IMG/VR virus record: IMGVR_UViG_2660238580_000001
Location: 1 to 37,504 of that record
DNA: 37,504 nucleotides
Source of the DNA: a virus
Taxonomy: Duplodnaviria; Heunggongvirae; Uroviricota; Caudoviricetes
Direction: 5' to 3' (one strand)
The notes under the pieces: generated by a model
Databases searched by the model: none
Seen by the model: only the letters and a program-made list of their open reading frames with translations
Told to the model about the DNA's origin: nothing
Part shown: one piece after another, positions 4,044-8,290 of the stretch
How the letters are laid out: each line of letters begins with the position of its first letter
Numbering within the stretch: the stretch's first letter is position 1
Translations under genes and position numbers: made by a program

Positions 4044-4106
4044 TTCGTTCTCCACTTTATATGCGCTGCACCGCGCTGAATTTTGGGAAAAGGAAGCCCT
4101 CACCAT

Positions 4107-4588
4107 CCGGCGATTATTGAGTCAATTACGTTTCAATAGATGCCCCCGCAGGGGCGGTTAGTTTCTCCACAAAACAGAGAAGAACACCTGCGGTGGCAGC
4201 CGCCCGGATGGATTGGGTTATGAGCCCGTCGTCCGGTGATGCTCTTCTCTGTTTTGTAAAAAGGACGGTACCAGCCGGAAGCAAGGGTACAAACTGGTAC
4301 CGCCAGGACTACACACAGCATAAAGTTGTGGTGCCGGGTGCCTCCCGGTGCCTGGCGAAGGTTGCACACCAGGCGGGTGGGTATCCACAGAAGGTCGACT
4401 GTCAGCCTCAACCTTAACCCGCGTGCGCTGAGCCGCATTCACCACAACGCTAAGGATTCTCTCTGGTTGAAAATACTTAGCTGTTATGTGCCTGCTTTTA
4501 GCCACATCAGGCGAGGTGGACCTGGTTATTCCCCAACAACAAGGATTCGGTTAATCTGGTTATCCCCAACAACGCAAAAGGAAAAGAA
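4107..4588. other. GC-rich, highly structured non-coding island (candidate structured RNA or regulatory region)
   Basis: No credible ORF; 15-bp perfect inverted repeat ACAAAACAGAGAAGA (4169-4183 / 4243-4257) around a 59-nt GC-rich loop; further hairpins (GGTACCAG/CTGGTACC at 4267-4274/4294-4301; GCCCC-CGCA-GGGGC at about 4142-4155). Confidence 0.35.
4522..4573 (+). repeat. Two direct repeats CTGGTTAT(T)CCCCAACAAC just upstream of the 4589 ORF
   Basis: Copies at 4522-4540 and 4556-4573, spaced 34 bp, ending 15 nt before the ATG; second copy contains TTATCCCCA (one mismatch to a DnaA box, TTATCCACA). Confidence 0.35.
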
Positions 4589-5023
4589 ATGTCCGGTAAT
4601 ATCTACACGCTGTACAAATCCCACTGTGAAAATGTTGGAAAGTATCGGGGCATTGAAATCAGTGGGGTAGTGTCATCAGTCGAAATAAGCAAAGTCGAAT
4701 CAAGGGCAACATTACTTACTCTTCTGGACCTTGTCTTACATGAGCACCGGAAGAAATTCGGCACTCCCTATAATCAGTTGAATGGGAAAAAGGCTCTGGT
4801 TCACCTTATTCTGATGAAGCATCACTGGATGCCAAAACAGATTAATGAGATGAAATTTGATGAACTTCTTCTTTCAATTCAGGATGAACTCACACTTGAT
4901 AAAATAAGCGTAACCGCCCAGAAATTTTTAGATTATCGAGACTGGAGATCACAAATTCATCACTTTGATGATTTTGACGAAAATGAATGGGATCCTAATT
5001 TGTCTGCACAATATCTAAAGTAA
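4589..5023 (+). CDS. Hypothetical protein (144 aa), AT-rich moron-like gene opposite in orientation to the early-left operon
   Basis: ATG at 4589 preceded by AAGGAAAAG; long ORF in AT-rich DNA; a plus-strand intrinsic terminator lies downstream at 5261-5284. Confidence 0.6.
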   Translation: MSGNIYTLYKSHCENVGKYRGIEISGVVSSVEISKVESRATLLTLLDLVLHEHRKKFGTPYNQLNGKKALVHLILMKHHWMPKQINEMKFDELLLSIQDELTLDKISVTAQKFLDYRDWRSQIHHFDDFDENEWDPNLSAQYLK

Positions 5024-5435: not shown

Positions 5436-6110
5436 TTAGGCTTTGATTTTGTATCTTCTTGGTTTTCCTGAGAAAATCACAGTTCCAATTATAGAGCAAT
5501 TACCGTTGATCTTAATGTAAGGCTCAGGCCAGTTTGGGTTTAACGCTTTGAGATAACGCTGTGTCCCATCTTCTATCAACCTTTTGAAGGTGGTTTCACC
5601 TGTATCGTGCATCAATGCAATAACGTCGTCACCGTGGCAGGCAGGTACTTCAGGATCGACAAAAATCATGTCTCCCGGGCGGTACTCATCAATCATTGAA
5701 TCACCTATCACCCGCAAGATATAAGTCATTTCCCCACAGGGTACAGGGCAGGGATACGTTTCTGCTGTGCTCAAATCAACCTCAGAATATCCAACTTCTT
5801 TCCATGCTCCGGCCTGTACCCATGATATGACAGGGACTAATGTGATTTGTTTATTAGTGATTGAAACATCAGGTTTTTTTGTGATGTTCGTTGTCTGGTG
5901 TTCTTGATCGAGCCATCCGACAGGCAGGTCGAAACATTTTTCGATGTGTCGTGCCATGCTGTCACCGATATTTTTAGTAGCACCATCTCCCATAAACCTG
6001 CTGGTCTGGGTTGGCTCGCGATCAATCATAGTGGCAAAGGAAGAATTCCCGCCAACACCATCTCTCAGTTTTCTGGCGTTAGACCGCCGGATGTCATGGA
6101 TTGTTTTCAT
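5436..6110 (-). CDS. cI-like prophage repressor (HTH plus LexA/S24-type autocleavage domain)
   Basis: 224 aa; N-terminal HTH region and C-terminal S24 peptidase-like domain (GDSM serine motif, conserved Lys near C-terminus); ATG at 6110 has no SD and lies 15 bp from an operator, suggesting a leaderless mRNA as for lambda cI. Confidence 0.88.
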   Translation of the reverse strand: MKTIHDIRRSNARKLRDGVGGNSSFATMIDREPTQTSRFMGDGATKNIGDSMARHIEKCFDLPVGWLDQEHQTTNITKKPDVSITNKQITLVPVISWVQAGAWKEVGYSEVDLSTAETYPCPVPCGEMTYILRVIGDSMIDEYRPGDMIFVDPEVPACHGDDVIALMHDTGETTFKRLIEDGTQRYLKALNPNWPEPYIKINGNCSIIGTVIFSGKPRRYKIKA

Positions 6111-6432: not shown

Positions 6433-7002
6433 ATGAGGCTAATCGTGGGTAAGCATCACTGGAAAATAGAAAAACAGCCTGAGTGGTACGTGAAAGCTGT
6501 CAGAAAAACTATCGCGGCGTTGCCGGGTGGTTACGCTGAAGCGGCTGACTGGCTCGATGTAACAGAAAACGCTTTATTCAACCGCCTTCGTGCAGATGGC
6601 GATCAGATTTTCCCGCTGGGATGGGCAATGGTTTTACAGCGTGCTGGTGGCACTCACTTCATTGCTGATGCTGTGGCGCAGTCTGCAAATGGCGTCTTTG
6701 TGTCTCTTCCTGACGTCGAGGATGTGGACAACGCCGATATTAACCAGCGTCTGCTGGAAGTCATTGAACAGATCGGCAGTTATTCAAAACAGATTCGTTC
6801 AGCAATCGAAGACGGTGTAGTGGAACCGCATGAGAAGACAGCAATTAACGACGAGCTGTATCTCTCAATTTCGAAGCTGCAGGAGCATGCAGCACTTGTC
6901 TACAAAATTTTTTGCATTTCAGAAAGTAATGACGCCCGCGAGTGTGCAGCTCCGGGCGTCGTGGCGTCGATTGCTTCTGGTTGTGGAGAAACTAACGCAT
7001 GA
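6433..7002 (+). CDS. cII-like regulatory protein (YdaT / CP76-type)
   Basis: 189-aa ORF immediately after cro, the usual cII position; resembles YdaT-like prophage proteins from memory; family not confirmed. Confidence 0.5.
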
Positions 7003-7337
7003 ACAGTTTAACAACACACTACCGTCGCTCGCAACTGATTGCGCTTCCTGTACCGGGTGGAAAAGCGAAGGTGGAATATTGCTATGCAGTGAATGTACCA
7101 GGTGACAGGGAAATTGTAACCCACAGCTTTGCAGAGTGGGCTGTGGGTGATTTCAACCGGCAGAAGGAGACAGTCCTTTGCGACAAGTTAACCGCTGGTT
7201 CAAAGATCACTACGGAGTACCCGTCAGAGTCATTCGTTGGGAGCCGGAAACACAACGGGTTATCTACCTCCGCGAAGGCTATGAGCATGAGTGCTTCAGC
7301 CCGCTCGAACAGTTTCGTCGTAAATTCAGGGAAATAG
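6999..7337 (+). CDS. Hypothetical protein; reading frame ambiguous (possible frameshift or two overlapping small genes)
   Basis: ATG at 6999 with GGAGA RBS; protein-like to about 7195, then serine-rich; an alternative frame (TTG 7178 after AAGGAGA, to stop at 7357) reads [40 protein letters not shown] and looks more protein-like. Confidence 0.35.
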
Positions 7338-7346
7338 AGGTCGGTC

Positions 7347-8288
7347 ATGAGCACTAAATTAACCGGCTATGTATGGGATGGTTGCGCTGCGTCAGGCATG
7401 AAGTTATCCAGCGTGGCAATTATGGCCCGCCTGGCTGATTTCAGTAATGACGAAGGTGTGTGCTGGCCATCAATTGAAACCATTGCCCGCCAGATTGGCG
7501 CGGGGATGAGTACCGTCAGAACGGCTATCGCACGGCTGGAAGCAGAAGGCTGGTTAACGCGTAAGGCGCGTCGCCAGGGTAACCGCAATGCGTCGAATGT
7601 TTATCAGCTTAACGTTGCGAAGCTTCAGGCAGCGGCATTTTCTCAACTGTCAGATTCTGACCCGTCAAAATCTGACGCATCAAAATCTGACCCGTCAAAA
7701 TTTGATGCGTCGAAATCTGGCAAAAAAGCGGGTTTTCACCCGTCAGAATCTGGCGGGGATCCGTCAGTAAAATCAAAACATGATCCGTCAGATAAAAAAA
7801 CTTCTCGTCCGGACGCTTCGCAACCGGACATGAAGAAGGATGAACAGGATTTTTTAACTCGTCATCCTGATGCGGTTGTATTCAGCTCTAAAAAGCGCCA
7901 GTGGGGAACGCAGGATGATTTGACCTGCGCACAGTGGCTCTGGAAAAAAATCATCGCCCTGTACGAGCAGGCCGCCGAATGTGACGGCGAGGTGGTTCGT
8001 CCCAAAGAACCTAACTGGACAGCCTGGGCAAACGAAATTCGCCTGATGTGTGTGCAGGATGGTCGTACTCACAAACAAATCTGCGAGATGTACAGCCGCG
8101 TCAGCCGCGATCCGTTCTGGTGCCGTAACGTGCTCAGCCCGTCGAAGTTGCGGGAAAAATGGGATGAGCTTTCCCTGCGCTTATCGCCGTCCGTCAGCAC
8201 GCACACAGAAAAACGTGAAGACCCGTACTTCAAAGCCAGTTACGACAACGTGGACTACAGCCAGATCCCGGCAGGATTCAGGGGGTGA
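7347..8288 (+). CDS. Replication initiation protein (N-terminal HTH domain, iteron-encoded linker, C-terminal domain)
   Basis: 313 aa; N-terminal HTH-like region; central low-complexity linker SDSDPSKSDASKSDPSKFDASKSG encoded by DNA iterons, as in lambda O-type initiators. Confidence 0.78.
   Translation: MSTKLTGYVWDGCAASGMKLSSVAIMARLADFSNDEGVCWPSIETIARQIGAGMSTVRTAIARLEAEGWLTRKARRQGNRNASNVYQLNVAKLQAAAFSQLSDSDPSKSDASKSDPSKFDASKSGKKAGFHPSESGGDPSVKSKHDPSDKKTSRPDASQPDMKKDEQDFLTRHPDAVVFSSKKRQWGTQDDLTCAQWLWKKIIALYEQAAECDGEVVRPKEPNWTAWANEIRLMCVQDGRTHKQICEMYSRVSRDPFWCRNVLSPSKLREKWDELSLRLSPSVSTHTEKREDPYFKASYDNVDYSQIPAGFRG
7655..7800. repeat. Iteron array (candidate replication origin) inside the initiator gene
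   Basis: At least five copies of CCGTCA(A/G)AATCTG(A/G)-like repeats, followed by an A-rich stretch (GATAAAAAAA). Confidence 0.6.
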
Positions 8289-8290
8289 TC

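Follow-up and report, generated by a model that had tools for sequence, protein, structure and literature searches.

In the bacteriophages lambda and phi80, the origin of replication (ori-lambda and ori-phi80) is located within the gene of its own initiator (O and gp15, respectively), in the part encoding the linker between the origin-binding and helicase-recruiting domains, and comprises tandem iterons with dyad symmetry followed by an A/T-richer stretch. The lambda iterons recur with a period of ~20-24 bp, and the phi80 record contains four gp15-binding sites with 21-nt spacing in gene 15 (codons ~122-147). In P1 oriR, oriC, and the iteron plasmids, iterons bound by Rep proteins of the winged helix-turn-helix (wHTH) type sit next to an unwinding region with GATC-headed repeats. 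Here we analyzed a stretch of 37,504 nt from a virus of the class Caudoviricetes (positions 1 to 37,504 of the IMG/VR record IMGVR_UViG_2660238580_000001; this whole stretch is termed "the window" below), in which an open reading frame (ORF) at 7347-8288 encodes a replication initiator of 313 aa. The original prediction on this DNA was that an array of iterons, a candidate origin, is embedded in the initiator gene in the manner of lambda O/ori, and that no gene for a separate helicase loader accompanies it.

In the accessible part of a recent survey (Genome Res 2025; PMC12315714), 34 of 314 lambdoid phages from Enterobacteriales (~11%), including phage LLS, are described as carrying an O homologue only, and this unstudied replication type is called "not yet understood." As in the window, the LLS module has a single O homologue and no helicase or loader gene; the cI and cro genes of LLS are, according to the same part of that paper, closest to those of mEp460_4F5, which has the replication region of the window. 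Neither iterons nor a DnaT-like tail is mentioned in that part. Non-lambda replication regions in lambdoid Stx phages have been classified as Eru types, some with HTH proteins beside cI, and the two papers on them (Llarena 2021, PMC8044961; 2022, PMC8951638) contain no origin or tail analysis; their text yielded no numbered type for the window. On the host side, the 2026 preprimosome structures (PMC13377028) left how DnaT recruits DnaB/DnaC as a matter that "remains unknown."

The explanation that fits best, and which we consider likely, is that the window derives from an SfII/SfIV-like temperate phage integrated at a tRNA-Thr gene beside proA, with the phage origin at 7647-7800 within the linker-coding part of its own initiator gene and a C-terminal tail of the initiator docking host DnaC. 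Taken by themselves, the repeats at 7647-7800 are very probably iterons of a replication origin as predicted from their sequence, while for recruitment of host DnaC-DnaB by the tail the odds are slightly favorable.

A predicted iteron array in the initiator gene

Tandem Repeats Finder, with which the repeats were proposed to be checked, detected a period of 15 at 7656-7719 (4.3 copies, 81% matches), together with a period of 30 (2.1 copies, 88%). The repeat search recovered copies phased by 15 nt over 7635-7724, and outliers at 7728-7757 and 7772-7790. The tandem array is thus present as foreseen, albeit with a unit of 15 nt, equivalent to five codons, instead of the ~14 bp given before, and every unit turned out to be a near-perfect 13-bp palindrome (GTCAGA-N-TCTGAC). 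Five iterons lie head to tail and a sixth copy is detached from them (Table 1). The motif GTCARAWTCTGR with up to one mismatch matched 10 positions in the 37,504 nt, all of them in 7649-7754 (1.4 expected by chance), and none of 100 shuffles reached this count; four of the five window matches of GAYCCGTCA were found at 7659-7790 (0.6 expected). Neither Tandem Repeats Finder nor the motif scan found a second repeat cluster elsewhere in the window. No DnaA box was found anywhere in the 37.5-kb window, leaving a DnaA-assisted origin unsupported.

The units encode ...SDSDPSKSDASKSDPSKFDASKSG... within the 313-aa ORF, confirming that the repeats give rise to the repetitive linker of the initiator. 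An A-rich tract had been noted after the repeats; it does exist but is short (six A residues after the fifth iteron and seven at the distal end). An A-tract, read as KK/KN codons, comes after every variant array among the homologues. Over ~7600-7860, the AT skew is +0.29 to +0.35 and the GC content 42-48%, against a GC content of 55-63% in the flanks. The number of units ranges from 0-1 to ~9 among near-identical proteins; 75 of 80 near-identical IMG/VR contigs had the array length of the window, and the remaining 5 were off by one or two 15-nt units. PhiR49_1 (host ECOR13), SfII, and SfIV share 97-98% identity with the window over the array, which is thus kept in viable relatives. The overlapping ORFs at 7588-7770 (+) and 7609-7776 (-) were rejected as genes because their lengths and stop counts differ among homologues, and we regard these open frames as a mechanical outcome of the repeat.

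DNA-level constraint and covariation with the DNA-binding domain

The linker (aa 103-163) is predicted to be disordered by AlphaFold2 (AF2), with predicted local distance difference test (pLDDT) values below 40, and little constraint at the protein level is thus expected there. We compared codon usage in an alignment of four genera, comprising the window gene and those of Klebsiella phage 1 LV-2017, Citrobacter phiNP, and Yersinia YeP3. Where the four genera agree on the amino acid, they also agree on the codon in 23 of 31 columns of the linker, as against 8 of 64 of the N-terminal domain (Fisher p = 3.7e-9), despite the amino acid identity of the linker being below that of the N-terminal domain. 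For a larger set (12 homologues, at least 7 genera), majority-codon fractions of 0.55, 0.89, and 0.94 were obtained for the N-terminal domain, the iteron part, and the distal GATC element described below, respectively (Mann-Whitney test, p = 3e-7 and 8e-6), and the amino acid identity was 0.44-0.83 in the linker and 0.72-0.89 in the N-terminal domain. Serine is encoded by TCA or TCT at 84% in the linker, whereas all six codons are used in the N-terminal domain. The differences among the homologues sit in the spacers of 2-3 nt that separate the cores, following a DNA register and not the codon register. We read this codon freezing as the mark of an element that acts in cis as DNA and is superimposed on coding sequence tolerant of it.

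Family members with divergent N-terminal winged helices carry different palindromic repeats at the identical place. The recognition helix ..STVIT.., which replaces ..STVRT.. in members from Rahnella, Klebsiella, and E. coli, goes with GTTCAGAATCTGAAC, a perfect 15-bp palindrome with a 15-nt period. The N-terminal domain variant ..SESTVKSAIAEL.. is accompanied by TTGACCCGTCAA and the Serratia variant by GGTGAGGGCTCAC, both with a 15-nt period, and the N-terminal domain of the cdtI/L033 type by ATTCACCAGGKGGT at a spacing of 21-24 nt. The unit of exchange is the N-terminal domain plus the linker, and the module boundary lies directly 3' of the latter. phiNP and YeP3 have aa 1-160 in common with the window protein and an unrelated C-terminal domain, and the database protein P0038 joins a variant N-terminal domain and linker to a C-terminal domain nearly identical to that of the window. 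Frozen synonymous sites in a less conserved linker, together with palindromes that covary with the domain presumed to read them, characterize iterons such as those of lambda O and phi80 gp15. Altogether, the repeats, their palindromic form, selection at the DNA level, and the covariation with the DNA-binding domain support an iteron array, a candidate origin, embedded in the 313-aa initiator gene.

Downstream of the iterons is a distal element with two GATC-headed direct repeats (Table 1). All 24 loci compared conserve CGATCCGTCAGTAA-N(9-10)-GATCC[A/G]TCAGATAAAA at the DNA level, regardless of the type of iteron, C-terminal domain, or tail; while the iteron part differs by specificity type, the distal element alone is universal. 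Its two GATC sites, 24 nt apart, are kept across all the initiator variants in the 24 loci. Within the gene, no other 40 bp are as unstable as 7760-7799 (-49.4 kcal/mol; window mean -57.3, sd 4.7). Genes for Dam recur beside these initiators, accounting for 19 of the downstream ORFs across the loci, and are directly adjacent in two of them (L001 and L002); the window itself has a phage Dam gene in the vicinity. The element at 7758-7800 is thus a candidate for a common element for unwinding and, possibly, methylation control. Control by Dam or SeqA through the two origin GATC sites is possible, and the phage Dam could act on these two conserved sites.

The predicted origin can now be set against the described ones. 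Its position within the initiator gene is equivalent to that of the four gp15-binding sites of phi80, and tandem iterons with dyad symmetry are shared with lambda and phi80, the somewhat A/T-richer stretch after them being a candidate counterpart of the unwinding region. The units of the window are, on the other hand, contiguous with a period of 15 bp instead of the 21 bp of phi80, are present in at least 5+1 copies of polymorphic number, and are followed by a weak A/T element headed by two GATC, all unlike the lambda and phi80 origins. The two conserved GATC repeats and the linked phage Dam gene are reminiscent of the methylation-sensitive origins P1 oriR and oriC. Unlike in the latter two, there are no DnaA boxes in the window and only two GATC sites. 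The match of the initiator to the RP-C N-terminal domain, of the iteron-plasmid Rep proteins, is below the cut-off (17.5 bits against 24.4). We consider the predicted origin to be of the usual lambdoid kind, although its specificity class is new.

Absence of a helicase loader gene and a DnaT-like tail on the initiator

Pfam found no P, DnaC, DnaB, helicase, or primase among all early and large late ORFs of the window. Six-frame tblastn searches with E. coli DnaC, a phage DnaC-like protein, two P-like proteins, and phi80 gp14 gave nothing better than an E-value of 0.19. The absence of a separate loader gene among the early-right genes thus held, and the search for one elsewhere in the window, covering the large late ORFs and the six frames, was likewise negative; the annotation of the complete PhiR49_1 genome has no loader, either. 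Unlike lambda and phi80, the window has no P or gp14 partner downstream of the initiator. The position of lambda P is occupied by a YfdN-like gene with PerC and MarR_2 domains, which we rejected as a substitute for P: it is absent after the homologous initiators of Klebsiella phage 1 LV-2017 and phiNP, in which a methylase directly follows the initiator and no other replication gene is annotated adjacent, and it coexists with P elsewhere, being found downstream of P in three P-containing modules (L019, L029, and L079).

The initiator of the window ends with ...NVDYSQIPAGFRG and DnaT of E. coli K-12 with ...SEPDSQIPPGFRG. In BLASTP, SQIPAGFRG of the initiator and SQIPPGFRG of DnaT were identical at eight of nine residues, both at the extreme C-terminus, and a profile of the tails ending in GFR matched the DnaT tail with an hhalign probability of 91-93% (E 1e-6 to 3e-7). 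The tails of relatives carry the full motif RDxNxxSxPDxxIPxGFRG, and closer tails in the family (..VNHISEPDTEIPPGFRG) resemble DnaT (..VNTVSEPDSQIPPGFRG) further. In DnaT, the residues R161, D162, S167, P169, D170, I173, P174, G176, F177, R178, and G179 of the tail are invariant in 17 orthologues/genera, and the tail is flexible and 20 residues long (PMC5778457). The tail is also found on other proteins of phages. The initiators of the cdtI phage, PhiR40_1, and Stx2c phages have a different body and the identical last 24 residues, with only yfdN and dam downstream, and phiNP, with a third C-terminal domain, ends with ..DYSLPENSGFRS. With three different initiator bodies carrying it, the tail is portable. 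Two contigs whose tails (..VNHISEPDTEIPPGFRG) are the same as in prophages of Escherichia albertii and E. ruysiae come from metagenome-assembled genomes (MAGs) labelled "Bacillota bacterium" (L031) and "Veillonella parvula" (L038), and are probably misbinned enterobacterial prophages. Apart from these two MAG contigs, labelled Bacillota and Veillonella, the hosts of the GFR tails are Enterobacteriaceae and Erwiniaceae.

The last residues of the initiator and the next ORFs were extracted from 85 loci (80 contigs, one genome per species, five earlier loci, and the window), and P-like genes were called by a hidden Markov model (HMM) seeded on two genes with Pfam Phage_lambda_P. A P-like gene was immediately downstream in none of the 22 loci with the tail ..GFR[G/S/T/V/Q]. 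In contrast, it was so in 45 of the 47 loci with Trp/acidic tails (..NTDWI.G.. as in phi80 gp15, ..HWNSPEAWENTL, and ..WNxxEEWE..); of the two exceptions, one has P as the second ORF and the other a frameshifted gene. The ending ..NTDW.. of phi80 gp15 and other P-linked initiators differs in this respect from the DnaT-like tail of the window. The third class, with WxxIW tails, had no P-like gene immediately downstream (0 of 16). In two of the GFR loci, the next gene encodes a 246-aa IstB/DnaA-ATPase protein, a DnaC-like loader. A reverse search started from this DnaC-like protein, which shares 51% identity with E. coli DnaC (E 1e-97), and returned 80 viral contigs. In all the 80 contigs, the gene preceding the DnaC-like start ends with ..PD[N/T/S]x[V/I]P[P/A/D]GF[R/T/K]G, and the gap from the end of this gene to the start codon of the DnaC-like gene is 2 nt, with one case of 14 nt. 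The tail proteins upstream of DnaC-like genes fell into 11 clusters at 60% identity or higher. Their N-terminal bodies, assigned by eye, include a cdtI-like HTH with an O-type C-terminal domain, a lambda-O-like N-terminal domain, and a YdaU-like form; the bodies carrying the DnaC-linked tail are thus apparently several unrelated architectures.

The four loci with the most DnaT-like tails (L030, L031, L034, and L038) have a DUF977 gene after a gap of 40 nt. Rac YdaW, encoded after the DnaC-like YdaV, belongs to the DUF977 family, so that these loci may represent a Rac-type module from which a dnaC-like gene has disappeared.

The similarity extends to the gene junction. The layout is alike in E. 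coli dnaT-dnaC (GGATTCAGAGGGTAACGATG), phage tail-dnaC pairs (GGATTCAGGGGGTAAGCATG), and the window (GGATTCAGGGGGTGATCATG), with "AGGGGG TRA NN ATG" common to the host dnaT-dnaC junction, the 80 of 80 phage initiator/dnaC-like pairs, and the initiator/yfdN junction of the window. Synonymous codon changes in the tail leave its amino acids intact, which argues for selection on the tail peptide and not solely on the ribosome-binding site of the downstream gene. The tail behaves as a portable, putative docking peptide: it accompanies loaders of the DnaC type, whereas the tail and P exclude each other. The shared tail and junction suggest that phages captured the dnaT 3' end repeatedly, in some cases along with dnaC and in others without it.

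From the lack of a loader gene and from a tail copying that of DnaT, which is encoded just upstream of dnaC, we infer that host DnaC, or DnaB-DnaC, is docked by this tail. In the mechanism we propose, dimers of the N-terminal domain would occupy the palindromic 15-bp iterons, five to six in number, and the nucleoprotein complex would destabilize the adjoining GATC-repeat element, maybe under the control of Dam methylation. The lambda-O-type C-terminal domain and, above all, the flexible tail would then bring in the replicative helicase. Phages that keep the tail but have lost their own dnaC, like the one studied here, would use host DnaC, making the initiator self-sufficient. The initiator has in common with E. 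coli DnaT the last nine residues, the layout of the junction to the next gene, and a presumable role in handing over DnaB-DnaC to a marked DNA site. Unlike DnaT, it lacks PF17948, and its targeting is predicted to be by a sequence-specific wHTH, not by PriA/PriB.

A more general proposition, which we put forward tentatively and at somewhat less than even odds, is that the DnaT tail ..RDxNxxSxPDxxIPxGFRG recruits DnaC/DnaB-DnaC and that temperate phages have grafted it repeatedly onto apparently unrelated origin-binding proteins. If this is true, the phage initiators are self-sufficient, the replication of the O-only lambdoid phages is explained, and the DnaT-DnaC contact left open by the 2026 structures is identified. 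The two questions, on the O-only phages and on the recruitment by DnaT, would merge into a single hypothesis, namely that the tail peptide binds DnaC. The link between the tail and the loader appears to be new: literature searches on the motif strings or the DnaT tail found no relevant earlier account, with subscription journals thinly covered, and an earlier description is possible.

Alternative explanations

Several observations weigh against the two parts of this interpretation, and some of them are what rival explanations would draw on. Regarding the origin, the repeats might be the by-product of a slippage-prone Ser/Asp/Lys linker peptide without any function in cis, with the origin elsewhere. 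A disordered linker and a copy number that shifts in steps of 15 nt, as expected of any tandem repeat, agree with this idea, as do the database proteins P0017 and P0067, which are almost devoid of units (P0020 also has few or none), albeit these three may come from defective prophages. A peptide by-product is nevertheless hard to reconcile with synonymous sites far more conserved than those of the folded N-terminal domain while the peptide is less so, with serine codons almost always being TCA or TCT, with the palindromic form of each unit and the different palindromes that go with different DNA-binding domains at one place, and with a window free of any other repeat cluster or DnaA box; we consider it quite improbable. 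Likewise, the constraint might stem from nucleic acid structure, either an mRNA hairpin controlling the translation of the initiator or a hairpin in single-stranded DNA (ssDNA) for primosome assembly or priming. The RNA fold of 7640-7800 is strong (-53.2 kcal/mol, z = -6.4, with none of 200 shuffles as stable), and long imperfect inverted repeats are present (labelled I1 and I5 in the repeat search). RNA or ssDNA structure could therefore contribute to the constraint on this segment. However, strong single-strand folding comes automatically with tandem palindromes, the gain or loss of units would shift a fixed long-range pairing, the conserved positions are half-sites and not compensating pairs, and the covariation is with the recognition domain of the protein. 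We hold structure as the source of the constraint to be improbable, although it is compatible with the iterons. The least probable of the explanations considered here, with a very small chance of being correct, is that the conserved linker DNA acts as a joint at which exchangeable modules recombine, its similarity being due to frequent homologous exchange and not to function. The module boundary is indeed just past the linker and mosaicism is well known in lambdoid phages, but recent exchange should lower synonymous and non-synonymous differences together, while the amino acid identity of the linker is below that of the N-terminal domain; the differences follow the DNA register of the spacers, and the iteron part is type-specific with only the distal element universal. 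Apart from these rivals, the low-stability element is weak compared to that of lambda, being ~1.7 sd under the mean with A runs of 6-7 nt. On balance, we retain a cis-acting iteron array as the explanation of the repeats.

The docking of host DnaC by the tail has a stronger competitor. The helicase might be loaded without a tail-DnaC contact, by PriA/recombination restart, by R-loops, by a small phage protein (YmfM-like, DUF4222, or YfdN-like), or by a contact between the C-terminal domain and DnaB, in which case the tail would do something else, such as binding ssDNA, PriB, or SSB. The partner of the tail has never been identified, and PMC13377028 speculates that the N-terminal domain of DnaT recruits DnaB/DnaC, with the words "tail" and "C-terminus" absent from its text. 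Moreover, the lambda-O-type C-terminal domain is kept in both P-containing and P-less modules, the module includes genes of unknown function, and the accessible part of PMC12315714 leaves O-only lambdoid replication as not understood. The WxxIW class (with the YeP3-like C-terminal domain; among L003, L020-L025, L045-L047, and L050-L069) is a second P-less class and has no GFR tail, implying that other solutions for loading exist. As for the tail evidence itself, the NVDYSQIPAGFRG tail of the window covers only the last nine residues of DnaT and not RDxNxxSxPD, some final codons of the tail double as the Shine-Dalgarno sequence of the next gene, and the 80 DnaC-linked loci are interrelated, their DnaC-like genes being 70-92% identical, so that the 80 contigs do not represent independent events. 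Set against loading without a tail-DnaC contact are the absence of YfdN from two phages with the same initiator, Klebsiella phage 1 LV-2017 and phiNP, and its presence beside P elsewhere; the tie between the tail and DnaC-like genes in 80 of 80 contigs, on several bodies, and in the host operon; the exclusion of P by the tail (0 of 22 against 45 of 47); and the protein-level selection seen in the amino acids of the tail, kept despite synonymous change. We judge such a route unlikely, albeit clearly less so than the three rivals to the origin, and prefer the tail docking host DnaC.

Domains of the initiator and its gene neighborhood

The initiator matched PHROG 391 ("replication initiation O-like") with an E-value of 1.1e-134, residues 1-313 aligning with profile positions 1-298. 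The AF2 model consists of a wHTH (1-98), a disordered stretch (103-163), and a helical part (164-278). In the N-terminal domain, Pfam HTH_36 (PF13730) was matched at aa 23-70 with 42.9 bits (cut-off 25), the HTH_36, GntR, and HTH_29 matches all falling within aa 23-81, and the model has a helix at H54-66 and a beta wing at 70-88. The best Foldseek matches of this domain were dimeric wHTH proteins of the MarR/ArsR type, several of which were solved on palindromic DNA; a sequence search of PDB chains gave the N-terminal domain weak MarR-type matches only. With the full model, wHTH matches dominated the Foldseek search of PDB and the C-terminal domain received no informative match. The C-terminal domain is 35.6% identical to lambda-type O proteins (tblastn, E 1e-18) and 35% to phi80 gp15 (BLASTP, E 6e-24), in the latter of which only this domain aligns. 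Phage_rep_O was absent among the Pfam matches of the initiator at E <= 0.01. The likeness to lambda O/ori claimed in the original prediction thus applies to the layout of an origin in the initiator gene and to the homologous C-terminal domain but not to the N-terminal domain, which is HTH_36 and not Phage_rep_O, making the protein a mosaic relative of lambda O and not a plain O.

No useful match was found in NCBIfam. DnaD_N scored below its cut-off (19.5 bits against 27), a DnaD-like resemblance being seen at the PHROG level only (phrog_2514, E 3e-29; phrog_4880, E 5e-12). Pfam gave no match to the DnaT domain PF17948 in the initiator, and the alignment between the profile of the O-type C-terminal domain and DnaT 92-179, collinear over 86 columns, was not significant (hhalign probability ~2%, E 0.02-0.03). 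Members of the family are labelled in public records as DNA replication protein O, primosomal protein I, GntR family transcriptional regulator, ArsR family regulator, biotin operon repressor, or helix-turn-helix domain-containing protein. "Primosomal protein I" on phage initiators seems to be a misnomer resting on the 9-residue tail. These results may be of use in annotation, as genes of this family are labelled HTH, GntR, primosomal protein I, or protein O and have no origin annotated. Furthermore, the family includes Shigella serotype-converting and Stx2c phages, so that the control of replication bears on the dosage of toxin and antigen genes.

The window starts with proA (1-1254), followed by tRNA-Thr(CGU) (1369-1444) and an integrase gene (1459-2622, -), an order indicating that it is the left part of a prophage. 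This end is presumably the thrW-type attachment site used by Shigella serotype-converting phages. The tRNA-Thr was the sole match of the Rfam scan of the window. The early-right region is 97-98% identical to the plaque-forming Escherichia phages PhiR49_1 and PhiR29_1 and to Shigella SfII and SfIV, and also partly matches Stx2c phages; the latter have another initiator body with the identical tail in the yfdN-dam context. The genes around the initiator are listed in Table 1, and those 3' of Dam are, in order, a gene for a protein with the LexA DNA-binding domain, RusA, KilA-N, DUF968, and Q.

Table 1. Positions of the initiator, the predicted origin elements, and the neighboring genes in the window.
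Feature	Position	Strand	Sequence or remark
Initiator, 313 aa	7347-8288	+	ORF; PHROG 391; Pfam HTH_36; AF2 layout
N-terminal winged helix, aa 1-98	7347-7640	+	presumed iteron reader; Pfam, AF2, Foldseek
Five head-to-tail 15-bp iterons (predicted)	7647-7721		core GTCA[A/G]AATCTGAC
I1	7647-7661		CTGTCAGATTCTGAC
I2	7662-7676		CCGTCAAAATCTGAC
I3	7677-7691		GCATCAAAATCTGAC
I4	7692-7706		CCGTCAAAATTTGAT
I5	7707-7721		GCGTCGAAATCTGGC
A6 tract	7722-7727		directly 3' of I5
Sixth, detached iteron copy	7739-7753		CCCGTCAGAATCTGG; GTCAGAATCTGG at 0 mismatches; kept in homologues
Distal conserved element	7758-7800		two GATC-headed direct repeats and A7 (7794-7800)
GATC-headed repeat	7758-7772		GATCCGTCAGTAAAA
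GATC-headed repeat	7782-7796		GATCCGTCAGATAAA
Helical C-terminal domain, aa 164-278	7836-8180	+	homologous to lambda O and phi80 gp15 C-terminal domains; pLDDT 65-89
Disordered C-terminal tail, aa 282-313	8190-8285	+	last 9 aa SQIPAGFRG, 8259-8285
Gene junction	8270-8293	+	GGATTCAGGGGGTGATCATG; leads into yfdN-like gene, not dnaC
cI-like repressor	5436-6110	-	then cro-like gene
cII-like / YmfL	6433-7002	+	
YmfM-like	6999-7337	+	
DUF4222	7178-7357	+	
YfdN-like gene	8285-8779	+	MarR_2-like HTH and PerC domain; Pfam PerC, MarR_2
Phage Dam (N6-adenine) methyltransferase	8746-9432	+	Pfam Dam, E 5e-45

Two other regions of the window differ from PhiR49_1. Between Q and the lysis region, a two-gene cassette (12345-14547, -) encodes proteins of 395 and 344 aa; the former has hydrophobic segments at its C-terminus and no family match, while the latter is a nucleoid-associated protein of the NA37/YejK type. 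PADLOC returned zero matches on this cassette and on YfdN. PhiR49_1 has an OmpD porin gene at the corresponding place, and the cassette is probably a moron. The region from the HD-domain gene to the next ORF (4106-4589, ~480 nt) contains short overlapping ORFs only, on both strands, and has no Rfam match; a scar left by a deletion, or an RNA lacking annotation, might account for it, and in PhiR49_1 yfdQ and yfdP come after the HD gene at this place.

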